Translations under genes and position numbers: made by a program
Part shown: positions 8,167 to 59,433 of the stretch, in pieces
How positions within the stretch are numbered: the first letter of the stretch is position 1
Layout of the letters: every line of letters starts with the position of its first letter
Assembly (NCBI GenBank): GCA_963835065.1
Contig: CAWIEK010000037.1
Location: 32,001-96,000 of the forward strand
DNA length: 64,000 bases
From: an uncultured Chthonomonadaceae bacterium
Lineage (GTDB): Bacteria > Armatimonadota > Chthonomonadetes > Chthonomonadales > Chthonomonadaceae
Reading direction: 5' to 3'
The notes under the pieces: model-generated
Databases searched by the model: none
What the model was told of the DNA's origin: nothing
The model's input: the letters and a program-made list of their open reading frames with translations, nothing else

Positions 8167-8433
8167 ATGACCTTGACGATTGACTTGCCCGATGAACTGG
8201 CCTCTCGACTAAGTGCGCTTCTGCCCGCAGAAGAGCGTGGACGCTTTGCCGTTTCCGCAATTGCCGATGCGCTTCTCGCTCAAGAGCGTGACTCCGCCGA
8301 ATGTATTGCCGCAGTCGAGGAGGCATTTATTGATGTAGATAAGGGCCGCACCATCTCCTTTGAAGAAGAAGAAGCGCGTTGGCAGCTGCAAAAGACCGCG
8401 TTGCTGACGAAGACTGGCGTTCATGTGGCATGA
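8167..8433 (+). CDS. Putative type II antitoxin
   Basis: MTLTIDLPDEL N-terminus, acidic C-terminus, ATGA overlap with the downstream toxin. Confidence 0.75.
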   Translation: MTLTIDLPDELASRLSALLPAEERGRFAVSAIADALLAQERDSAECIAAVEEAFIDVDKGRTISFEEEEARWQLQKTALLTKTGVHVA

Positions 8434-8828
8434 GCGATACAGAAGACAAAGACGAACCAACGCGGACTTATGCGTTGCGTGTTACCCAACGCGCTCAACG
8501 TGATCTGGACGCGGCAACCGTTTATTTCGCTGAAACCGCTTCACCGGAGATTGCTGTCATGTGGCGTGAAGGGATATACGCGGAGTTGGCTTCGCTTGCC
8601 ACATTTCCGCGCCGTTGTCCGCGTGTACCGGAGCAATTCCATCGTGAGGTGCGCCAACTTTTGTACCGCCGCTCTGGAAGTCAGACAGCCTATCGTATCC
8701 TGTTTGCTATTGCCGGCGAAGAGGAAACATCACCGGATGCGCCGACTGTAATTATTCTTCATGTCCGTCACACCGCCGCTCGTCCCATAACACGAACACA
8801 AGTTCGTATAATCGAGGCAGAGCAATAA
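8430..8828 (+). CDS. RelE/ParE-family toxin
   Basis: Y.LRVT.RA.RDL, L..FP.RCP, YRILF, V.ILHVRH motifs. Confidence 0.88.
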   Translation: MSDTEDKDEPTRTYALRVTQRAQRDLDAATVYFAETASPEIAVMWREGIYAELASLATFPRRCPRVPEQFHREVRQLLYRRSGSQTAYRILFAIAGEEETSPDAPTVIILHVRHTAARPITRTQVRIIEAEQ

Positions 8829-8913
8829 ATGAGACGTGCTGATGCAGGCCACATAAAGCAAAACCAACTGCCATTAGAGTGGGATATTCAGGCAAAGGAA
8901 AGGACCGGTCAGT

Positions 8914-9264
8914 ATGCGTAACAATCACCGATGGAATGAAAACGATGAAATCATAGGTTTGTACCTATACCGATTTGGAGACAAAAGCCTTTCCTACTCT
9001 AAAGAGGAACTAGCAGATAACATCGGCATGGGCTGGGGCAGTATGAGTATGAAGATCTCCAACTTTCGTTATTTAGACGGACAGGGAGGTTTATCAGAAT
9101 ACTCACGCCAATGTGAAAACATCTATTTGCGTTACAAAAATATGCCCAATTCCGAGTTTGCGAAAATCGGAATTGAAGCGGTAGTCAAAGCAATTGGAGA
9201 GTATTGCGAACGTCTCCAATCTTTGTTGTCGCCAACCGCAAAAGCAACGCAGCCAACGGCTTAA
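8914..9264 (+). CDS. Hypothetical protein resembling the N-terminal domain of HNH-type restriction endonucleases
   Basis: W...E.I..LYLY...IG....S..MKISNF..LD...GL motif; AT-richer than the flanks. Confidence 0.55.
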   Translation: MRNNHRWNENDEIIGLYLYRFGDKSLSYSKEELADNIGMGWGSMSMKISNFRYLDGQGGLSEYSRQCENIYLRYKNMPNSEFAKIGIEAVVKAIGEYCERLQSLLSPTAKATQPTA

Positions 9265-9393
9265 CAATGCTTTACAACTGGCGTGTCGTGCTGAGTAGCA
9301 GATATTCAGAGCCGGAGGAGGCTTCCATGCAATACGTGACACAGGATAAAGACAAAGCAACACACACTTACGTGCAGCGCTTCGAGGTATGAT

Positions 9394-9663
9394 ATGACCT
9401 TTACCATTGACTTAACGGCCTCGGAGGAGGCGTACTTGGTGGCAGCAGCAAAACAGCGAGGGATTGCGCCAGACGAGTTTCTCAAGCAACTTGTAACGAA
9501 CTGCCTGCCGAAACGTGCGGACGCGACCTTTGCAGAAATTTTAGCGCCGGTTCACGAGTACAGCCGAGAACACGGGTATACCGAGGAAGAATTGGACGAG
9601 TTCGTAGAAGCCGAAGTTGCCGCGTATCGTGCCGAACGCCTCCACTGCTGCTGTTTTCAGTAG
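9394..9663 (+). CDS. Putative antitoxin whose native 3' end is displaced to 12174-12215
   Basis: MTFTIDLT..EEAYL..AAKQRG; SD GAGGT; the native C-terminus AERRAKQKSNAHE* appears after the inserted segment. Confidence 0.7.
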   Translation: MTFTIDLTASEEAYLVAAAKQRGIAPDEFLKQLVTNCLPKRADATFAEILAPVHEYSREHGYTEEELDEFVEAEVAAYRAERLHCCCFQ

Positions 9664-9971
9664 CCGCCTTCCAGCCACGAGACGTACAAGTCGTAATAGT
9701 GGGCGAAGTCTTCGGGCAATCCTTCCTCATCTAAATCTTCTACGCCAATCCAGCGCTCTTTGCCTTTTGCCTGCACCTTGCATTGCAGCGTGTCACTGGC
9801 GCCGACTTGAAAGCCGAGGACTTGCACGGGGCTGCCAAGCAGGTTGGCGCGAAACGGCGTTTCCACTTGCTCCAAAAACGTGTTTTCCCACGCGCTCATC
9901 TGCTCGTACTCGCCGTAAGCGTCCGTCAGTATCTCGTCAATCTCGTCGCGCTTTTCGGATGGTTCCGCCAT
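9657..9971 (-). CDS. CcbP-like (calcium-binding family) small acidic protein, copy 1
   Basis: EILTDAYGEYEQMSAW...PFRA motif; SD AGGAGG; protein identical to copy 2. Confidence 0.65.
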   Translation of the reverse strand: MAEPSEKRDEIDEILTDAYGEYEQMSAWENTFLEQVETPFRANLLGSPVQVLGFQVGASDTLQCKVQAKGKERWIGVEDLDEEGLPEDFAHYYDLYVSWLEGGY

Positions 9972-10036
9972 TTTGCCTCCTGTCCTGTGTTGTTGCCTTG
10001 CGTAGGTGTTTCGTTTATCGGTGTGTACCGGTGGAA

Positions 10037-11281
10037 TTAGCCGCAGCACTGCTTGTACTTTTTGCCGCTGCCGCAGGGGCAGGGTTCATTACGGCCCGGC
10101 TTCTTTCCGCTAAACGGGGCGGGCGGGGCCGGCGTTTTCAGGGCTTCCACCAGGCGCTCGCTCAGGGGGATTGTGCCGGGAAGCGCCCTGTTGTCGTAAT
10201 CCGGGCGGTAACTGCGCAGCAGAATTTCGCCGTCCCGCTGCCACTCGAAATCAGGGAGCGAAAACAGGCTGCGGATCACCTGGGTGGCGCGTTCCGGGTC
10301 GCGCTCGGCCAGCATGCGTACCGGGATCAAAGACATATCGGGGTCTTGAATATACTCGCTCACGATAGCCCGGTAGGGTTTCGACTTGACCTTTTTGGGA
10401 TCGGCAAATGCTTCCGCAACCAGTCCCAGATCGGGATGAAACTCCATGCCTTCCCGCTCATCAAAGGTCACGCCGACGCTTTTCACGTCGTCCTCCCAAT
10501 CTATTTGCGAGTATTGCAGGTGCTTGGGCAGGGTTTGTATCGGGGGCGACTCTGTTTCGCCCGTCGCAAGGGCGGCTGCGGCGTTTGTTTTCTGAACGCG
10601 ATGCAGCATGTAGGCGTTCATGCGCGTGACGAACTCCCCTACCGGCCACACAACCAAATCCGAGCCGAAGAAGGCGACGAAATCCGGCTTTTCCGCGCGC
10701 TGTAGTTCGATAGCCTCTTCCCTCTTCGCCGGGTTGCGAAACATCAGGGCGGGCGACTTCTGAATGGCTTCCGCCGCCCCGCGCAGCACCTCGTTTTTGC
10801 CGGAAGGCGGATACAGACTGATCGCCCCACTCAGCATCCAGCCGTCGCCCATCGGCACAATCCGCGCCTTGATAAAGTGGCCGGGCAGCATCTTATCGAA
10901 ATACGCGCGTCCCATGTTGGAGCGGACGCGGTACACAAGGTCATCCAACAGGTTGTCGAACACCAATACATCGCCCTCGTGCCGCAAAATCTCAAACAAC
11001 CCTTCCACGACGTTCTTCCAGCCCAGCATGATTTCCTGGTCCGCTTCGGGCAGGTCGGGGTGGTCGCTTACAAAATGGTCTACCACCGTCAGGCCGTCTT
11101 CCAGCCGATATTGAAGCAGAAAATAGTCCATAAAACTGACATACTGCGGGTTACTCACCGGTTCCGGGGTGTCAAAATAGTGGATTTGCGCTTCCACCAG
11201 ATCGCCGGCAAACCGCTTGTCCTCGCCGAATCGCACCAGTTGCCGCTTCAACGCGCCCGCGTGTTCCATCAAATCCATCAT
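10037..11281 (-). CDS. SEC-C metal-binding domain protein, copy 1
   Basis: C-terminal [26 protein letters not shown] upstream of MMDL. Confidence 0.9.
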
Positions 11282-11506
11282 GCTCGCGCTTCCTCCAAAA
11301 CCCGCGCCTCTTAATAAATGAGACTTGCTGCCCGCCCTCAATCATCACTTCAAACATACGTTTTCTGCTGTCATTTTATCGCCATAGTCCGAAAACAGAA
11401 ATAAGCCGAAGAACAGAATCAGGCAGGAACTAAAGTGTGCCGCGATGAATAGGATGTAGACAAGATTGCACAGAACCACCCATATCAGGGTCAGGGAGTG
11501 TCCAGA

Positions 11507-11875
11507 ATGAAGCGATGCATACAAGTAGCGGTTGGTCCTGGAATATTCTCATGTGAGCGATCAGCCTCATTCACAGTAAACGACAAATACTACACCCTGC
11601 TTGCAGACGCTTCTTTCTTCGACGGCGATCTCATGCAGGTGCGGGTTATCGCCATACAAGGCGACCAATGCTTGATTGACCTGCCCAATGAGACGTTCAC
11701 AACCGGCAACCGCATGTACGTGCCAACAGTCATGCTTCTGGATATGTCAACAGCCCTACAAACTGAGGAGCCATCCGCAAAAGAGATCGCAAAGTTGGCA
11801 ATGGCTGGCGGCGCGTTTGACTGGCTTGCCGATGAACCTGATCTGTATGATGATACTTGCGGCGAAAGCGCTTAA
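11507..11875 (+). CDS. Hypothetical protein with antitoxin-like acidic tail, copy 1
   Basis: ORF conserved in both copies; tail GGAFDWLADEPDLY. Confidence 0.65.
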   Translation: MKRCIQVAVGPGIFSCERSASFTVNDKYYTLLADASFFDGDLMQVRVIAIQGDQCLIDLPNETFTTGNRMYVPTVMLLDMSTALQTEEPSAKEIAKLAMAGGAFDWLADEPDLYDDTCGESA

Positions 11876-11900
11876 AATAGAAAGAAAAAGAGGCGCAGCC

Positions 11901-11929
11901 TTGTATTTATTCGTCAATAGACGTATAAT
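11901..11929 (+). promoter_or_regulatory. Sigma70-type promoter of the putative antisense RNA, copy 1
   Basis: TTGTAT-17 nt-TATAAT; conserved in copy 2 at 15042-15070. Confidence 0.7.
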
Positions 11930-11934
11930 AGGAG

Positions 11935-11998
11935 GTATCCAGCCAACGTTGGTAGCGCTGACTGGACACGCGCCTAGCCTACGCTAGTGGCGGTTTTT
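11935..11998 (+). ncRNA. Putative ~65-nt antisense antitoxin RNA, copy 1
   Basis: Promoter, then hairpin TCCAG...CTGGA, then hairpin CGCCTAGC/GCTAGTGGCG plus T5; overlaps the 3' end of the small minus-strand ORF. Confidence 0.5.
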
Positions 11999-12094
11999 AC
12001 ACCGGTCACTAAGCATCAGCCAGAGCGCGACCGCGTAATACGCCGTACCAACGACGTAGAACGCGGCGGCAAGCACATGGTTCAGAGTTTCCAT
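11984..12094 (-). CDS. 36-aa single-TM peptide, candidate type I toxin, copy 1
   Basis: METLNHVLAAAFYVVGTAYYAVALWLMLSDRCKNRH; strong SD AAAGGAGGAGG; hydrophobic core with charged tail. Confidence 0.65.
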   Translation of the reverse strand: METLNHVLAAAFYVVGTAYYAVALWLMLSDRCKNRH

Positions 12095-12207
12095 GCTTTG
12101 CCTCCTCCTTTCTATGGGCAGCGGGTTGTGTGTCGGCGGTTGCGCGAACAACCCCGGCGGCTTGCATAGTCCGGCCGAACGCCGCGCCAAGCAAAAATCG
12201 AACGCGC

Positions 12208-12677
12208 ATGAATAAACCGGAGGAACGCGAGAAAGCGGTCTTCGATACCGGTGTTGTCCTTCAGGCGGCCCTGTCAGAAAGCGGGCCGTCTTTTGGCTCG
12301 TTTCATCTGATGGAAGAAGACAAAATTATTGTTGTACTTAGTCCACAAGTGCGCGAAGAGTACGAAGATGTTCCACGCGCCCTGCAATTCGGCAGAAGAA
12401 CCCATTGCTTACTGAAGAATACGTTCAGGCATTTTTGGCCCGACTGGACGCCAAAACACAATTGGTAACGGTGATACGGCCTTACCTACAGTATCCGCGT
12501 GATCCTAATGATGAGTTGATACTTAATCTGGCAATCCAAGAGCAGGTAGATTATCTTGTGACCCGCGACAAAGATTTGCTCACTTTGAACAGGAGCAGCG
12601 ATTTTCGGCTGTTATATCCCTACATTCGCGTCGTTGATCCACTTACCTTTGTGATTGCGGTGACGCCGAAGCCGTAG
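12208..12677 (+). CDS. PIN-domain toxin (putative TA toxin), frameshifted near 12370-12405
   Basis: AVFDTGV, RDPNDE..L.LA....DYLVTRDKDLL motifs split over two frames. Confidence 0.82.
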
Positions 12678-12798
12678 AAATAGGGCTTTGATGCCATCAA
12701 GATAACCTATGCTGCCAATCTATTCAGCGCCCTGCTGCGGTTCTCCATACGCCAGTTGCCGCAGCAGTTCATCTCCTGATATAGCTCCTCTGCTGTTT

Positions 12799-13113
12799 TC
12801 AATAGCCGCCTTCCAGCCACGAGACGTACAAGTCGTAATAGTGGGCGAAGTCTTCGGGCAATCCTTCCTCATCTAAATCTTCTACGCCAATCCAGCGCTC
12901 TTTGCCTTTTGCCTGCACCTTGCATTGCAGCGTGTCACTGGCGCCGACTTGAAAGCCGAGGACTTGCACGGGGCTGCCAAGCAGGTTGGCGCGAAACGGC
13001 GTTTCCACTTGCTCCAAAAACGTGTTTTCCCACGCGCTCATCTGCTCGTACTCGCCGTAAGCGTCCGTCAGTATCTCGTCAATCTCGTCGCGCTTTTCGG
13101 ATGGTTCCGCCAT
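12799..13113 (-). CDS. CcbP-like small acidic protein, copy 2
   Basis: Same protein as 9657..9971. Confidence 0.65.
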   Translation of the reverse strand: MAEPSEKRDEIDEILTDAYGEYEQMSAWENTFLEQVETPFRANLLGSPVQVLGFQVGASDTLQCKVQAKGKERWIGVEDLDEEGLPEDFAHYYDLYVSWLEGGY

Positions 13114-13179
13114 TTTCGCCTCCTGTCCTGTGTTGTTGCCTTGCGTAGGTGTTTCGTTTATCGGTGTGTACCGGTGGAA

Positions 13180-14424
13180 TTAGCCGCAGCACTGCTTGTA
13201 CTTTTTGCCGCTGCCGCAGGGGCAGGGTTCATTACGGCCCGGCTTCTTTCCGCTAAACGGGGCGGGCGGGGCCGGCGTTTTCAGGGCTTCCACCAGGCGC
13301 TCGCTCAGGGGGATTGTGCCGGGAAGCGCCCTGGTGTCGTAATCCGGGCGGTAACTGCGCAGCAGAATTTCGCCGTCCCGCTGCCACTCGAAATCAGGGA
13401 GCGAAAACAGGCTGCGGATCACCTGGGTGGCGTGTTCCGGGTCGCGCTCGGCCAGCATGCGTACCGGGATCAAAGACATATCGGGGTCTTGAATATACTC
13501 GCTCACGATAGCCCGGTAGGGTTTCGACTTGACCTTTTTGGGATCGGCAAATGCTTCCGCAACCAGTCCCAGATCGGGATGAAACTCCATGCCTTCCCGC
13601 TCATCAAAGGTCACGCCGACGCTTTTCACGTCGTCCTCCCAATCTATTTGCGAGTATTGCAGGTGCTTGGGCAGGGTTTGTATCGGGGGCGACTCTGTTT
13701 CGCCCGTCGCAAGGGCGGCTGCGGCGTTTGTTTTCTGAACGCGATGCAGCATGTAGGCGTTCATGCGCGTGACGAACTCCCCTACCGGCCACACAACCAA
13801 ATCCGAGCCGAAGAAGGCGACGAAATCCGGCTTTTCCGCGCGCTGTAGTTCGATAGCCTCTTCCCGCTTGGCAGGATTGCGAAACATCAGGGCGGGCGAC
13901 TTCTGAATGGCTTCCGCCGCCCCGCGCAGCACCTCGTTTTTGCCGGAAGGCGGATACAGACTGATCGCCCCACTCAGCATCCAGCCGTCGCCCATCGGCA
14001 CAATCCGCGCCTTGATAAAGTGGCCGGGCAGCATCTGATCGAAATACGCGCGTCCCATGTTGGAGCGAACGCGGTACACAAGGTCATCCAACAGGTTGTC
14101 GAACACCAATACATCGCCCTCGTGCCGCAAAATCTCAAACAACCCTTCCACGACGTTCTTCCAGCCCAGCATGATTTCCTGGTCCGCTTCGGGCAGGTCG
14201 GGGTGGTCGCTTACAAAATGGTCTACCACCGTCAGGCCGTCTTCCAGCCGATATTGAAGCAGAAAATAGTCCATAAAACTGACATACTGCGGGTTACTCA
14301 CCGGTTCCGGGGTGTCAAAATAGTGGATTTGCGCTTCCACCAGATCGCCGGCAAACCGCTTGTCCTCGCCAAATCGCACCAGTTGCCGCTTCAACGCGCC
14401 CGCGTGTTCCATCAAATCCATCAT
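13180..14424 (-). CDS. SEC-C metal-binding domain protein, copy 2
   Basis: SEC-C motif; three visible amino-acid differences from copy 1 (K/Q, R/H, N/T). Confidence 0.9.
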
Positions 14425-14647
14425 GCTCGCGCTTCCTCCCAAACCCGCGTACTGTAACGAATCAATACTTGCTGCCCACCCTCAACCATCACTCCAAACA
14501 TACGTCTTCCGCTGTCATTATATCGCCACACTCCGAAAACAGAAGAAGCTGAAAAGCAGAAGCAGGCAGGAACTAAAGTGTGCCGCGATGAATAGGATGT
14601 AGACAAGATTGAACAGCATCACCTATATTACGGCAGGGAGTATCAGA

Positions 14648-15016
14648 ATGAAACGACATATACAAGTCACGGCTGGTCCCGGAATCTTCTCGTGTGAGCG
14701 ATCAGCCTCATTCACAGTAAACGACAAATACTACACCCTGCTTGCAGACGCTTCTTTCTTCGACGGCGATCTCATGCAGGTGCGGGTTATCGCCATACAA
14801 GGCGACCAATGTTTGATTGACCTGCCCAATGAGACGTTCACAACCGGCAACCGCATGTACGTGCCAACGGCTATGCTTCTGGATATGTCAATAGCCGTAC
14901 AAACCGATGAGCCATCAGCAGAAGAGATCGCAAAGTTGGCAATGGCTGGCGGCGCGTTTGACTGGCTTGCCAATGAACCTGATCTGTATGATGATACTTG
15001 CGGCGAAAGCGCTTGA
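14648..15016 (+). CDS. Hypothetical protein with antitoxin-like acidic tail, copy 2
   Basis: Paralog of 11507..11875. Confidence 0.65.
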   Translation: MKRHIQVTAGPGIFSCERSASFTVNDKYYTLLADASFFDGDLMQVRVIAIQGDQCLIDLPNETFTTGNRMYVPTAMLLDMSIAVQTDEPSAEEIAKLAMAGGAFDWLANEPDLYDDTCGESA

Positions 15017-15075
15017 AATATAAAGAAAAAGCGGCGCAGCCTTGTATTTATTCGTCAATAGGCGTATAATAGGAG

Positions 15076-15141
15076 GTGTCCAGCCAGAAGTTCTCAGGCG
15101 CTGACTGGACACGCGCCTAACCTACGCTAGTGGCGGTTTTT
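15076..15141 (+). ncRNA. Putative antisense antitoxin RNA, copy 2
   Basis: Promoter at 15042-15070, stem GTGTCCAG/CTGGACAC, terminator-like hairpin plus T5. Confidence 0.5.
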
Positions 15142-15237
15142 ACACCGGTCACTAAGCATCAGCCAGAGCGCAACCGCGTAGTACGCCGTACCAACGACGT
15201 AGAACGCGGCGGCAAGCACATGGTTCACAGTTTCCAT
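15127..15237 (-). CDS. 36-aa single-TM peptide, candidate type I toxin, copy 2
   Basis: METVNHVLAAAF...; retains a structured 5' UTR and an upstream promoter. Confidence 0.65.
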   Translation of the reverse strand: METVNHVLAAAFYVVGTAYYAVALWLMLSDRCKNRH

Positions 15238-15349
15238 GCTTTGCCTCCTCCTTTCTATGGGCAGCGGGTTGTGTGTCGGCGGTTGCGCGAACAACCCCGG
15301 CGGCTTGCATAAACCGCTGCCCAAGAGTTCACAAGCCGGAACACAAGTC

Positions 15350-15382
15350 ACATTGTTGCACACTTTATGTGCAGGTGTCAAG
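15350..15382 (-). promoter_or_regulatory. Putative promoter/operator for the small peptide gene
   Basis: Minus-strand TTGACA followed by the palindrome TGCACA-taaag-TGTGCA and a weak -10 (AACAAT). Confidence 0.45.
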
Positions 15383-15387
15383 GCCAT

Positions 15388-15849
15388 TTACATCACAGTA
15401 ATCAGTTCACAAACCAAGCGCTGTTTCTCCCTTGAAAGGCTTAGAAATTTTTTCTGAGTTTCCACAGGCATAATCTCGTAGTTCAAAAACACGGGAGTCT
15501 CTAACAACTTACCATCCAATGTATCGAAACCTGCTTGTGCGTACACAATTTCAGGACGCATTTTTAAGCCAGCAGCCACTTGAAGACAAGTTTTACGCTG
15601 AACTGTGTAACCTGCCTGCCGTCGCCGTTCTACCTGCCCCCACGCCCAATGTGAGTAAGTACGTTCTGATTTATCTTCAGATAGTTGCTTGCCACCCTCT
15701 TCCTTACCTATTTGATGCAGTTGTTCTTCCGGGAGAGATTGCAGCCAGTCTTCAACACGTTTTGCACATTGCTTTCGAGTCAGACCTTGCTTCTCTCGCT
15801 CCTCTTTAACCCATTGTCCAAAACGTATGCGTAAATTCTCAGTTTCCAT
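15388..15849 (-). CDS. XRE/HTH-type transcriptional regulator
   Basis: FGQWVKEEREKQGLT...CAKRV and ..QVAAGLKM.PE.VYAQAGF patterns; AT-rich. Confidence 0.65.
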   Translation of the reverse strand: METENLRIRFGQWVKEEREKQGLTRKQCAKRVEDWLQSLPEEQLHQIGKEEGGKQLSEDKSERTYSHWAWGQVERRRQAGYTVQRKTCLQVAAGLKMRPEIVYAQAGFDTLDGKLLETPVFLNYEIMPVETQKKFLSLSREKQRLVCELITVM

Positions 15850-16012
15850 TGATCGCTCCATCATTTTCAAGAGAACCGTTGAATAGATTGAGTATACCAG
15901 CATGTGACATATTTGTGCAAGGAATGACTGTAATGAAGTTGCGTATAAAAACGAGTTTGGCGCAACAGTGAGCCACTGTTGCGCCACGAAGTTGAGAAAC
16001 AGGTGAAGAAAC

Positions 16013-17658
16013 TTACTCGACGCCGACGGGGGCATGGGCGCGGGGTGGCGGGGGCGTCCAGGTGGGGTCGTCGTTGGCGAGCAGGTGCAGGCCTAGGAAC
16101 TCGCCTAGTTCTTCATTGGCGTGGCGGTCTACCCACTGTCCGAAGTTTTCTTCCCGCGAACGGCTGCGTTTTGAACTGCCGCAGCAGGTTTTCCAGCGCG
16201 TACTTCACCTTGTCGGCGGGCACTTTGCGCGAAATGGGACGCACGAACTTGGCGTCCGCGCCCAGCCGCCCGCCCAGACACACGTCATACGCTTCCACCT
16301 GCGTCGCCGTCGTTCAAACGCGCCAGACAGCCCTGCAAGCCGATGTCGCCGATGTGATGCTGGCCGCAACTGTTGGGGCAGCCGTTGAGATGGATGCGGA
16401 TCGGCTCGTCCCACAGCAATTGCGCTTCCAGATGCGCCACGATCTCGCGCAGGCGGGCTTTGGTTTCCGTAATCGCCAGATTGCAGAACTCGTTGCCCGT
16501 ACACGAGACCGCGCCCCGATGGAACTCCGATACGTCCCACAGAAAGCCCGCATTGCGCAATTCCTGTTTCGCCGCTTCCAACCGGTCGGCGTCAATGTGC
16601 GGGAACAGATAGTTTTGCTGATTGGTCGTGCGCAGGTTGCCCTCGCAGTATCGGTCGGCAATGTCGGCAGCCGCGAACATCTGCTCCGTCGTCAGCCGCC
16701 CCGTAATCACGGATACGCCGATCCAGAATTTCCCTGCCTGCTTTTGCGGATGGATGCCCAAATGATCCTGCTGCACGGTTCCCATCGGCTCGGCAACCGG
16801 TTCGGCGGGTTCCGGCGTCCAGCCCAATCGCTGAATCAGCGCTTCCCGAAACTTCTCCGCGCCCCAATCCGCCACGAGGAACTTCAGGCGCGTATGGTTG
16901 CGGCGCTTGCGGTAGCCGTCATCGCGGAAAATTTCGGTCACGGCCCGGCATACGTCCAAAACCTGCTCCGGCTTGACGAAAATCTCCAACTGCTGCGCGA
17001 AGTACGGCTGCGTACTCAATCCGCCGCCCACGCGCACATGGAAGCCGATTTCCTCTTTGCCGTCCCGAACGCGCTTCACGGCCTGTATGCCCAAATCGTT
17101 GATTTCCGGCTGATTGCAATGGATGGGACAGCCCGAAATAGAGATTTTGTACTTGCGCGGCAGGTCGGAGAAGTCTTTGTTATCCAAAAAGTAATTGGTC
17201 ACGTCCTGCACGATCTGGCGCGTGTCGTACAATTCGTTAGGGTCCACGCCCGCCACCGGGCAGCCGCACACATTGCGCGTAATGTCGCCGCAAGCGCCCG
17301 TCGTGGTCAGGCCCACCGCGCGCAGTTTTTCAATGGCAAGCGGCAGGGTGTGGATGGTCAGCCAGTGGAATTGAAAATTCTGGCGCGTGGTGATGTCGGA
17401 AATGTTGTTGCCGTACTCCCGCGCCACTTCCGCAACCGCGCGCATCTGCGCGGAACTCATGTCGCCGCTGGGAATCTTGACGCGCAGCATGAAATGCCCC
17501 ACGTTCGGCTGCTGCTGATAAATGCCGTACCAGCGCATACGCGGGAAATCATCGGGAGCTATGGTCTCGAAACCGGTCTGAGCGTAGCGCAGCACATCGT
17601 CCCACACGTCCAGCCCGTCTTTCGCCTTCTTTATCGCTTCTACATCCGCCTTGGACAT
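16013..17658 (-). CDS. Ferredoxin-dependent nitrite/sulfite reductase (siroheme, 4Fe-4S), apparent frameshifts near 16305 and 16165
   Basis: TTRQNFQFH, LPRKYKISISGC, SCTGNEFC and NGCPNSCGQH.I.DIG motifs; C-terminus continues in other frames. Confidence 0.9.
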
Positions 17659-18462: not shown

Positions 18463-18669
18463 TGTACTGTAATCCCTGATAAGTAAGTATATCCTGCGCA
18501 GGCACAAATAGAAAGCCCGCTTGTCAGGGCAAGGGTGAAACTGCTATAATGTAGTGGCAGGCTGACTTGTAGGATATTCCTATGTGTCGGCTCAAATTTA
18601 TCGAGTATAATTTTGGCAGCGACTTTCCGCAACCCGCGCGCCGGCAGGAGGTTAAAAGTGGTGACAGTA

Positions 18670-18948
18670 ATGACTTACATCGGCAAGGTTCAGGAGAATG
18701 GAACGGTTATCGTGTCGAAAGACGCACAGGAACAGTTGGGATTGCAGCCGGGCGATGAAGTGCGGGTAAGCCTGAATCGCAGCGTTGTAGAACCGCAGCC
18801 TGTCACGCCCAATGAAAAAGCGCTGGCGGCTCTGCGCAGGGTTGCCGCATTACAAGAGGGAATGCGCTGCACGGATGGTTCGCACACGAACGAAATTATT
18901 CATGAAGGCCGCGACGGAGGAATGTACAGTGACGAATGCGCCGAGTAG
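18670..18948 (+). CDS. AbrB/MazE-family antitoxin
   Basis: GKVQENGTVIVSKDAQEQLGLQPGDEV swapped-hairpin motif. Confidence 0.85.
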   Translation: MTYIGKVQENGTVIVSKDAQEQLGLQPGDEVRVSLNRSVVEPQPVTPNEKALAALRRVAALQEGMRCTDGSHTNEIIHEGRDGGMYSDECAE

Positions 18949-19414
18949 CCCTCTTCCGGGCGCGGTAATTGTAGACGCCAACATTGCCGTTGCGATTGCT
19001 GCAAAGGAGACGGGGCGTGAGGCGTTAGCAACGGCGGAACTTAGCAGTTATGCTGCACAAGGGTATGAATGGTACGCGCCCGGAGCAATCACAACAGAAA
19101 CTCTTTATGCGCTGTGCCAAAAGTTTCATGCCGGACTGCTCACATTGGTGGAGTACGAAAAAGCGATCAGCAGTCTGGAAGCGTTGATAAGCAGTCTTTT
19201 GCCGCCTCCTGATGGTGACAGCGCCCTGATTCATCGCGCCTATGACATTGCGAAAAGTTATGGCTGCAGCCGTTCTGCGGATGCTGTCTATATTGCATTA
19301 GCAGAGGAGTTGGCTAAAACGCGGACAACCGTGCTGCTGACGTTCGATCAAGACCTTCCTAAACAAGCGGCCAAACACGCGCCGACAGTAACCGCGCGAT
19401 TGTTGACAATATAG
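18929..19414 (+). CDS. VapC/PIN-domain toxin
   Basis: VIVDANIAVA, DAVYIALAE, LLTFD motifs; overlaps the antitoxin stop. Confidence 0.88.
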   Translation: MTNAPSSPLPGAVIVDANIAVAIAAKETGREALATAELSSYAAQGYEWYAPGAITTETLYALCQKFHAGLLTLVEYEKAISSLEALISSLLPPPDGDSALIHRAYDIAKSYGCSRSADAVYIALAEELAKTRTTVLLTFDQDLPKQAAKHAPTVTARLLTI

Positions 19415-20711: not shown

Positions 20712-20831
20712 AGTAGTCAGTAGCCAGTAGTCAGTAGTCAGTAGAACGTCTCTATTGGCAGCCGTGTGCAAACATGCAACACAGAGAAAACAGCATTTCT
20801 ACTGGCTACTGACTACTGGCTACTGACTACT
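20712..20831. repeat. 35-bp inverted repeat built of AGTAG[T/C]C heptamers around a 50-nt spacer
   Basis: 20712-20746 matches the reverse complement of 20797-20831 at 34 of 35 positions. Confidence 0.95.
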
Positions 20832-56533: not shown

Positions 56534-56671
56534 TTAGGGGTCAGGATTCAGGATTCAGGATTCAGGAGCCAGTTACAGAGTGTTCTTGATAAAAAGGCAG
56601 ATTTCTTACCACTCAAGAGCAGTAACAAGCTTGTCTTCACTGACCCCTGAATCCTGAATCCTGACCCCTAA
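56534..56671. repeat. Inverted pair of CAGGATT heptamer arrays between the hisH-like and hisF-like genes
   Basis: TTAGGGGTCAGGATTCAGGATTCAGG (56534-56559) is the exact reverse complement of 56646-56671. Confidence 0.92.
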
Positions 56672-57332: not shown

Positions 57333-58484
57333 TTACGATGCCTTCTGCAACACGCGCAATTGCGGCTTGTATTCCCAGGGCGAAACCTGATGGCTTTTGG
57401 CGATTTTAAGGAATTCGGCTTCGCTCATGCCAACGATTTCCAGGAACCAATCCAGACTGGCGGGACGCTGGCCGTCGTATTCCACCATCAGGCGTTCGCC
57501 GGTTTCCCGTTCCAGAACGCCGTTGCGTATGTCAATGCTGGCGAGATGCGCCGTGCGTCCGTAGCCGCGCTTGATGAACTTGATATAATCGCGGACGCCC
57601 TGCAAGCCACATTCGATCTTTTCGTAGCCGTACTGTGAGGGAACGCCTTCTACCACATCTTCCTGCCAGCCGAGTTCCCGCTTGATAAGGTCCACCTGAT
57701 TCTTGACGTTCCAGGGAATGTAGGAACCCAGGCAGACGGAGCGATAATTGATGGCCCGCAGGTCGCGCAATTTCGGGTAGCGGAACGGATCAAGATCGCG
57801 CGGGTCGAGATCGCTCATATCAATCATGCCTGCCATGTCGTCGGCGGTAATGCCCAGGTTCACGAACCGATTGAACCGCTTCTCGTCCACTTCCTCTACT
57901 TCGTCGTAGGAAAAATAGGCCGTGTATTCCGCGCTAGGTTCGCCCCAGAACACAAGCGGAACCTCAAATTTGGCGGCAATCTGCATCGGATACGCGAAGA
58001 TGCCGGAGTGGCAATGCCAGCAAAAGTCGCCCTTGCGCAGAAAACTTTCCAGCATCAGGCGCTGCACCAGTTTCCAATTGGGACGGAATTTAAGGAAATC
58101 GCAGCCCAATGTTTGCAGAACGCGCTCGTTGTTCGCCAGTACGCCCGGACGCAGAAAGCCATGATCGAAACTGACCACGAGCGGCTTGATTTTGTACTCC
58201 TGCATCAGATATAAGAGCGTAAACGCGCTGTCCTTGCCCCCGCTGAACGGAACAATGCAGTCGTAAGCGTATTTGCCCCGGTGCTGTTCAATCAAGGCGT
58301 CCAGATTTCGCTTTTTCTGTTCCCAATCTATGGCATGTTTGATCTCGTGCTGGCGGCAGACATTGCACACGCCTTCGGCATCGAAAATAATCGTTTCGTG
58401 CGTTTCCGGTATCAGGCAGCGGGAGCAACGCTTTAGTTGATAGTTGATAGTTGATAGTTGATAGGGGAAAGCAGTGGGTTGCAT
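57333..58484 (-). CDS. N-acetyl sugar amidotransferase (WbuX/PseA family)
   Basis: C..C, GVC..C, YDCIVPFSGGKDS PP-loop, KFIKRGYGR. Confidence 0.9.
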   Translation of the reverse strand: MQPTAFPYQLSTINYQLKRCSRCLIPETHETIIFDAEGVCNVCRQHEIKHAIDWEQKKRNLDALIEQHRGKYAYDCIVPFSGGKDSAFTLLYLMQEYKIKPLVVSFDHGFLRPGVLANNERVLQTLGCDFLKFRPNWKLVQRLMLESFLRKGDFCWHCHSGIFAYPMQIAAKFEVPLVFWGEPSAEYTAYFSYDEVEEVDEKRFNRFVNLGITADDMAGMIDMSDLDPRDLDPFRYPKLRDLRAINYRSVCLGSYIPWNVKNQVDLIKRELGWQEDVVEGVPSQYGYEKIECGLQGVRDYIKFIKRGYGRTAHLASIDIRNGVLERETGERLMVEYDGQRPASLDWFLEIVGMSEAEFLKIAKSHQVSPWEYKPQLRVLQKAS

Positions 58485-58559
58485 TATGAAGGCTCCTCGT
58501 AGGGTGTATAGAAATTAAACAGTAGGGATCATTTGATAGTCAGGGTGGCCTATCAACCA

Positions 58560-59183
58560 TCAACTATCAAATATCCGAAACTCTTCCCGAAACAGCCCCA
58601 TGTCAATGCGATCCTGAAAAGCGCCGTGACTCCAGTATTCCTGACGCTTGCGGCCTTCGATGACGAAACCGAGGCGTTCATACAGACGGAGGGCGCGTTC
58701 GTTGTTGGCGAGGACGCCCAAAGACACTTTGCGCAGCCCTAATCGCTCGAAGGCATACGTCAGGCAGAGCCGCATGGCTTCCTCGCCAAGCCCCTGCCCG
58801 TGATGGCGCGTATCGCCGATAAGGATGCCGACGGAAGCGGTTCGGTGCAGCCAATGAATGGGTTCCAATTTGATGTTGCCGATATGCGCCCCGCTTTGCA
58901 GATGCTGAATAGCAAAGAACAGGCAAGTCGGGAACCCGGAAGCGGCTGCCGTTGCTTGCGAAACATAGCGTTGCAGGGCTTCGAGAGTTTGTGGAAACGC
59001 CCCGGTTTCCAGATGGCGCGTAATATCGGGATCGTTCAGCCAGCCGAGGTAATGCGCTCCGGCGTCGGCGGTTGTCAGAGGCCGCAGGCCGATTCGCTTG
59101 CCGCGCAAAAACAGGGCGCAAGCGTCCGCAGGCGAATACAAGGGAACTTGAGCGTCATCCAAAATGGTAAGGTCGGGCGACAT
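58560..59183 (-). CDS. RimJ/RimL-type GNAT acetyltransferase
   Basis: YLGWLNDP, HIGNIKL, GQGLG.EA, N.RA..LYE.LGF..EG. Confidence 0.88.
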   Translation of the reverse strand: MSPDLTILDDAQVPLYSPADACALFLRGKRIGLRPLTTADAGAHYLGWLNDPDITRHLETGAFPQTLEALQRYVSQATAAASGFPTCLFFAIQHLQSGAHIGNIKLEPIHWLHRTASVGILIGDTRHHGQGLGEEAMRLCLTYAFERLGLRKVSLGVLANNERALRLYERLGFVIEGRKRQEYWSHGAFQDRIDMGLFREEFRIFDS

Positions 59184-59325
59184 GAGGCGGCACATTCTCC
59201 CTGCGCGGCAGCAATGAACTGTATAGCGGCAGCATCGAACTGTATACAGGTATTATTGGCAGCGAGGGAGTGAGTTTGCAGGGGAAATATAACGGCGCGC
59301 AGGCGCTTGCGCAGGAACCGGCATA

Positions 59326-59432
59326 TCTATCAACTATGAACTGTTTATGAACTGTAAACTTGAAGCCCGGTAACGTGATTGTCGAGTGTCACCAGACATT
59401 CCTATCAACTACGAACTATCAACTATCAACTA
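59326..59432. repeat. CTATCAA/CTATGAA heptamer arrays downstream of rpoN
   Basis: ctatcaa ctatgaa...; ctatcaa ctacgaa ctatcaa ctatcaa. Confidence 0.85.
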
Positions 59433-59433
59433 T

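Follow-up and report, generated by a model that had tools for sequence, protein, structure and literature searches.

We analyzed a stretch of 64,000 nucleotides (nt) from an uncultured Chthonomonadaceae bacterium (assembly GCA_963835065.1, contig CAWIEK010000037.1, positions 32,001 to 96,000 of the forward strand), which is called the window throughout. The antitoxin gene of a toxin-antitoxin (TA) pair with a PIN toxin is split in this window by a segment of approximately 2.5 kb, which is flanked by a 10-bp direct repeat and is present a second time downstream. A preliminary description of this DNA had proposed that the segment is a non-autonomous mobile unit with a target-site duplication, and had offered a local duplication followed by a deletion, or a misassembly, as alternatives. 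The genes and features at the locus are as follows (ORF, open reading frame; aa, amino acids; G024, a genome of the same family; G002, a genome of the same genus; the putative alleles A and B are discussed below).

9394 to 9663, plus strand: antitoxin gene paired with the PIN toxin gene, with 82 codons of its own and then 7 foreign codons that run into copy 1; over 82 aa it is 62% identical to the intact ortholog in G024
9631 to 9640, plus strand: left 10-bp direct repeat, read from the sequence; single in G024 and G002
9641 to 12173: copy 1 (putative allele A), cut short at either end when compared with the sequences of copy 2 and of relatives
9657 to 9971, minus strand: CcbP-like ORF of copy 1, 104 aa; PF11535 below cut-off, 85% to G002 and 65% to a further genome, G023
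10037 to 11281, minus strand: SEC-C motif protein of copy 1, 414 aa; PF02810, E 5.6e-10, 69% to G002, where it adjoins ccbP
11507 to 11875, plus strand: hypothetical ORF, 122 aa; P0002 covers its N-terminal part (76%), C-terminal tail antitoxin-like
12174 to 12183, plus strand: right 10-bp direct repeat, start of putative allele B
12174 to 12215, plus strand: 3' end of the antitoxin gene, its stop overlapping the PIN start, by translation
12208 to 12677, plus strand: PIN_3 (VapC-like) toxin gene, its frame shifted by one base near 12371-12374; PF13470 in both halves, intact in G024
12678 to 12789: spacer; a contig of a different sample (X2) has the part 12726-12789 attached to ccbP
12790 to 15316: copy 2 (putative allele B, full-length locus), with ccbP at 12799-13113, SEC-C at 13180-14424, the hypothetical gene at 14648-15016 and a peptide gene at 15127-15237
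15388 to 16035, minus strand: ORF labelled an XRE regulator in the preliminary description, a label to which Pfam, NCBIfam and PDB lend no support

The repeat, GCCGAACGCC, has no further site in the window; the 8.0-Mb assembly contains it 151 times, counting both strands. The two copies (9648-12168 and 12790-15311) are adjacent and direct, as in a simple tandem duplication: they lie on the same strand, show 96.8% identity, and copy 2 starts 607 nt past the right repeat, close to the distance of about 600 bp given earlier. Frame 1 from position 12174 encodes the final 13 antitoxin residues, and the stop codon at 12213-12215 overlaps the PIN gene, which starts with the ATG at 12208. It had been proposed that excision of the segment together with one repeat restores an antitoxin gene coupled to PIN, and this is the arrangement found in two relatives: G024 has an intact 92-aa antitoxin with PIN directly after it, and the TA locus of G002 is uninterrupted across the site. 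The combination of a split gene and a flanking repeat exceeds chance, because both relatives pass uninterrupted through the site, each with a single repeat. The frameshift that leaves the PIN gene in two frames was absent from the preliminary description. A Pfam scan of the antitoxin (9394-9663) gave no family above the cut-off.

By its gene content, the segment is a patchwork of modules that occur separately in relatives rather than one unit. None of 60 relatives carries the whole segment. The ccbP and SEC-C genes are adjacent in G002, with unrelated neighbours, and the peptide module stands alone on another contig (C3) of the same genome and twice in the congener G001. Among the loci fetched, with five from the locus itself excluded, none links two of the modules; when metagenomes were scanned with the SEC-C protein, the 80 loci kept reflected mainly the short SEC-C motif, and none of them carried a second gene of the segment. 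Of the earlier gene labels, SEC-C stands, whereas CcbP stays below the curated cut-off (19.3 versus 21.5 bits). No recombinase family was found by Pfam and NCBIfam among the four main ORFs (alternative-frame ORFs were outside the scan), in line with what had been described. The ORF at 11507-11875 is apparently a fusion of an N-terminal part of no assigned function and an antitoxin-like tail: the other top matches listed share mainly the last ~35 aa, and one of them has a weak Phd-family match. The same tail is common to many antitoxin-like proteins of 80-100 aa. A scan of 8800-16300 with Rfam gave one chance match only (E 2).

The ends of copy 1 were compared with the corresponding sequences elsewhere, for which two further features, both of the peptide module, are needed.

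11984 to 12094, minus strand: 36-aa hydrophobic peptide of copy 1, candidate type I toxin, lacking the promoter and one arm of the leader stem
15317 to 15381, minus strand: rest of the peptide leader and predicted promoter TTGACA-18-AACAAT, absent in copy 1; C3 homology to 15345, promoter scan and covarying stem

On the right, the homology between copy 2 and C3 extends to 15345, past the end of copy 1, which falls between the two arms of the peptide leader stem, so that the promoter is lost. The promoter predicted for copy 2 lies on the minus strand at 15381-15352, and copy 2 indeed runs on into it, as had been noted. On the left, the X2 contig keeps the context of copy 2 for 64 nt beyond the start of copy 1 (X2 record 15 matches 12726-12936 with 8 differing letters). 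Since 12726-12789 stays attached to ccbP in this contig of a different sample, it is the native context of copy 2. Copy 1 is cut off at both ends from a longer natural sequence.

A non-autonomous mobile unit, moved by a transposase or recombinase acting in trans and leaving a 10-bp target-site duplication, would be expected to look different, and we regard it as very improbable. In its favour are the perfect 10-bp flanking repeat and the intact site in two relatives, where the 10-mer is found once and not twice. Miniature inverted-repeat transposable elements and mobile insertion cassettes share with this locus the lack of a transposase, the short flanking direct repeats and an empty site in relatives; they differ in having terminal inverted repeats, dispersed copies and conserved ends. 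The best terminal inverted repeat here, with boundaries shifted by up to 10 nt either way, has 11 of 20 positions, and 1003 of 2000 random pairs reach at least 11, which bears out the earlier statement that there are no such repeats. The preliminary description had also called for a search for other copies with the same ends, and none is present in the genome: with up to 5 mismatches, the right-end 25-mer matches copies 1 and 2 only, and the left-end 25-mer has two 5-mismatch matches elsewhere, neither with homology to the segment. The sole full homolog lies only 607 nt away, the segment is absent in the 60 relatives, its modules lie apart and in unrelated contexts, and its ends cut a conserved RNA leader. 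The sole multi-copy family of 0.6-3 kb at ≥95% identity resembles an insertion sequence (IS), and its ends are unrelated to those of the segment. This IS-like element of ~970 bp has inverted ends and seven near-identical copies, on contigs C8, C24, C31, C41, C51, C53 and C71. Thus, the proposal of a mobile unit fails in three defining respects, because the ends are cut, there is no terminal inverted repeat and there is no second site.

Differences between the copies are unevenly distributed. The first 1.6 kb contain 11 of the 82 differing columns, the following 0.8 kb contain 68 and the final 126 nt contain 3, and one block diverges by 9%; 44 transitions and 25 transversions were counted. The proportion of synonymous differences (pS) is higher than that of nonsynonymous differences (pN) in all four genes of the segment, for example 0.119 versus 0.032 for the hypothetical gene, and SEC-C has 6 synonymous versus 3 nonsynonymous differences. 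Uniform divergence from an identical start is therefore not what is observed, since neither the block counts nor the excess of pS agree with it. The copies look like alleles under purifying selection and not like a decaying duplicate, because a recent duplication would be expected to give uniform copies, and decay to leave less synonymous bias.

This pattern bears on a local rearrangement, in which a tandem duplication with loss of the first PIN copy, or a double template switch at a stalled fork, would have been followed by import of a diverged allele into a portion of one copy or by gene conversion that made ccbP/SEC-C more alike. The donor is adjacent and in direct orientation, both ends are arbitrary, a short overlap may arise naturally from a double template switch, and several other duplications in the assembly are more alike centrally than at their ends. 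However, a duplication followed by a deletion would require two breakpoints no more than 10 bp apart within 0.6 kb (approximately 2% by our estimate), and a pN well below pS together with the 9% block is unexpected from an identical start unless there was additional recombination. We consider such a rearrangement unlikely. The alternatives of the preliminary description, local duplication with deletion or misassembly, come close to the explanation favoured below; decay from an identical start is the part that does not hold, as the copies differ as alleles.

The assembly as a whole mixes strains, because it contains patchy overlaps between contigs of the kind expected of co-assembled strains: 31 inter-contig overlaps of at least 3 kb, 244 kb in total, have 91-99.6% identity and up to 135 substitutions per 500 nt. 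The 244 kb duplicated over these 31 contig pairs inflate the assembly size of 8.0 Mb. We also searched for near-tandem duplications by self-comparison (direct orientation, at least 1 kb) and found 10, of 1.1-5.3 kb and 91-99.7% identity, including the locus studied here; the same procedure gave none in the congeners G001 and G002, of which 1.2 Mb each were compared (3.0 expected, Poisson P 0.05). The other nine are on contigs C12, C23, C30, C37 (154696-160353), C41 (two), C44, C49 and C56, and span gltX, dnaE and further ordinary genes. For seven of these nine (C23 and C49 were excluded), 15 gene pairs were compared, and pS exceeded pN in all 15, one of them marginally; the gltX pair has 20 synonymous versus 2 nonsynonymous differences. 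The start of dnaE is present in three versions with frameshifted pieces, two of which terminate at contig ends. In several of the other duplications the copies are more similar in mid-stretch than at the ends. Three have junction fillers of 28, 41 and 50 nt, with no source in the assembly beyond chance matches of 12-17 nt, and a fourth has a filler of 16 nt, of which up to 14 nt agree with a common repeat.

The explanation that we favour, by a modest preference, is that alleles of one locus from two strains, one of them lacking ~0.6 kb, were concatenated by the assembler. Allele B would have the full order of antitoxin, PIN, spacer, ccbP/SEC-C, hypothetical gene and peptide module with promoter. 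Allele A would lack ~0.6 kb comprising the antitoxin tail, the PIN toxin gene and the spacer, a gap that may plausibly reflect loss of the toxin gene. The contig would then leave allele A after 12173 and begin again in allele B with 12174, and the 10-mer would represent the last shared bases ahead of the indel, written twice, rather than a target-site duplication. Allele A to 12173 and allele B from 12174, placed in series, reproduce the window exactly. This explanation starts from the observed boundaries, the truncation of copy 1 at both ends, the allele-like divergence and the strain mixture; the existence of allele A, with its deletion, and the absence of the join 12173|12174 from any cell are our inferences. 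Concatenated subpopulation variants and false direct repeats have been documented for long-read assemblers (10.1101/2025.04.22.649783). Common to those cases and this locus are subpopulation variants placed one after another with conserved sequence on either side, direct repeats of considerable length, and an assembly that mixes strains and has indel errors in genes; the difference is that the published cases are known by read clipping and a drop in coverage, whereas the present one is judged from assembled sequence.

It should be noted that several observations weigh against a join made by the assembler. The deletion in allele A has no independent sighting. Runs X1-X3, which share a small fraction of the words (0.05-0.11) and give low-cover contigs, yielded neither a joint nor a piece across 9640 or 12173; three 151-nt pieces of X3 match copy-1 alleles with one difference each, at very low cover. 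That the assembly is long-read is itself deduced from contig sizes, overlaps and frameshifts. The comparison with the congeners is borderline, extends over 2.4 of ~14 Mb and concerns different species. Microhomology at two other junctions (C12, with 6 of 7 nt; C30, with 3 nt) suits a join made in the cell. The junction fillers were also examined as blends of the two parent flanks, and this idea was rejected, as the fit was no better than in a random control for any of the four (p 0.18-0.70).

A real tandem of two alleles, joined in the cell, is worth weighing; we hold it to be possible, though somewhat short of probable. One form would be a merodiploid, in which DNA from a strain with the deletion allele recombined through homology upstream of the 10-mer and the far end was joined illegitimately where homology stopped, by homology-facilitated illegitimate recombination (HFIR) or a related single crossover. 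This would account for why the copies diverge as alleles do, why the right end is arbitrary and why the 10-mer sits at the edge of the indel, and TGCC stands beside the join in both parent sequences. HFIR typically proceeds with 3-10 bp of microhomology, and an HFIR assay in E. coli yielded partial duplications (PMC3240628); in transformed pneumococci, small duplications without flanking repeats are described (PMC3784515). Both systems resemble the locus in having one homologous anchor, one arbitrary join and two alleles in tandem. Nevertheless, HFIR normally deletes recipient DNA, with a usual deletion about the size of the insertion, and occurs less often than homologous recombination by a factor of 10^2 to 10^6 (PMC3240628), and the pneumococcal merodiploids mostly depend on IS repeats (PMC3784515), which are absent at this locus. 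Ten such events in one genome, with gltX and dnaE included, are implausible compared to none in 2.4 Mb of the congeners, and we judge this form unlikely. A broader version, in which end-joining at the limit of homology would regularly leave imported alleles in tandem in this species, with approximately ten kilobase-scale merodiploid loci per genome and the 10-bp repeat as a scar, seems to us doubtful.

The finding is probably ordinary and not a mobile element; an assembly artefact of strain variation is the likeliest account, with a real tandem of alleles as its main rival. If concatenation by the assembler is the correct explanation, a polymorphic indel plus a false join can imitate an insertion with a target-site duplication in strain-mixed assemblies, and other repeat-based findings in this genome require support by reads. 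If the tandem is real, it would point to stacking of alleles through illegitimate recombination in an uncultured lineage. Under either explanation, the peptide module is a testable candidate for a type I TA family in Armatimonadota.

By its anatomy, the peptide module looks like a type I TA family. According to PMC6563280, type I modules encode a peptide of <60 aa with a hydrophobic segment and a charged C-terminus. Among 68 genomes of the order, 7 contain matches to the 36-aa peptide, 16 in total and all in Chthonomonadaceae. When a profile of 13 members was run against a phylum-wide sample of 301 genomes, 4 gave matches, once more from Chthonomonadaceae only; there are up to 6 copies per genome. 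The 13 aligned members are 34-38 aa long, share an invariant Y-x-x-G-x-x-Y and have a mean hydropathy of 1.69 over residues 7-25; the genes have a strong Shine-Dalgarno sequence, and the product has a hydrophobic core and a basic tail. None of the 13 members matched a Pfam family at ≤0.01, the peptide has no Pfam or NCBIfam family above cut-off, and the module has no Rfam match. The predicted mRNA fold has a z-score of -5.56 compared to 100 shuffles, and 7 of 63 pairs of the consensus structure covary, from 4 sequences only. One further feature belongs to the module.

11901 to 11929, plus strand: predicted promoter of an antisense RNA convergent on the peptide gene, with a perfect -10 and 3 of 6 positions at -35

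This antisense promoter is missing from the list of the consensus promoter scan; the predicted RNA would begin near 11936 and, in the downstream copy, near 15078. A -10-like hexamer lies 53-56 nt past the stop in 8 of the 16 homologous loci, is elsewhere in 5 and is absent in 3. The short hydrophobic peptide, the predicted convergent antisense promoter and the predicted mRNA structure resemble convergent type I modules as set out in PMC6563280, whereas a peptide outside Pfam and NCBIfam families, found only in Chthonomonadaceae and known from sequence alone, sets the module apart. A limited literature search found no paper joining 'Armatimonad' and 'type I toxin-antitoxin'. The sites of the module are 11984-12094, 15127-15381, positions 120004-120318 of C3 in this genome (G000), and loci L114-L128. 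Opposite the peptide, a 60-aa plus-strand ORF extends to the boundary of the copy; since it is interrupted in C3, it was dismissed as a shadow ORF.

The locus lies in a TA-rich variable island, and type II TA pairs occur nearby: ParE with an upstream partner, and an AbrB-like protein with PIN (8179-8828 and 18613-19414). Downstream, a nitrite/sulfite reductase gene (16113-17658) has an apparent frameshift near 16290, with the C-terminus in another frame, which is likely to be a consensus error. In G002, an ORF of 1328 aa (L021, 1465-5451) is, by eye, what we take to be a GyrA-like protein with an intein-like insertion. Intergenic regions of the window contain short tandem units of ~7 nt, often as inverted pairs, at 20712-20831, 56534-56671 and 58434-59433, among others.

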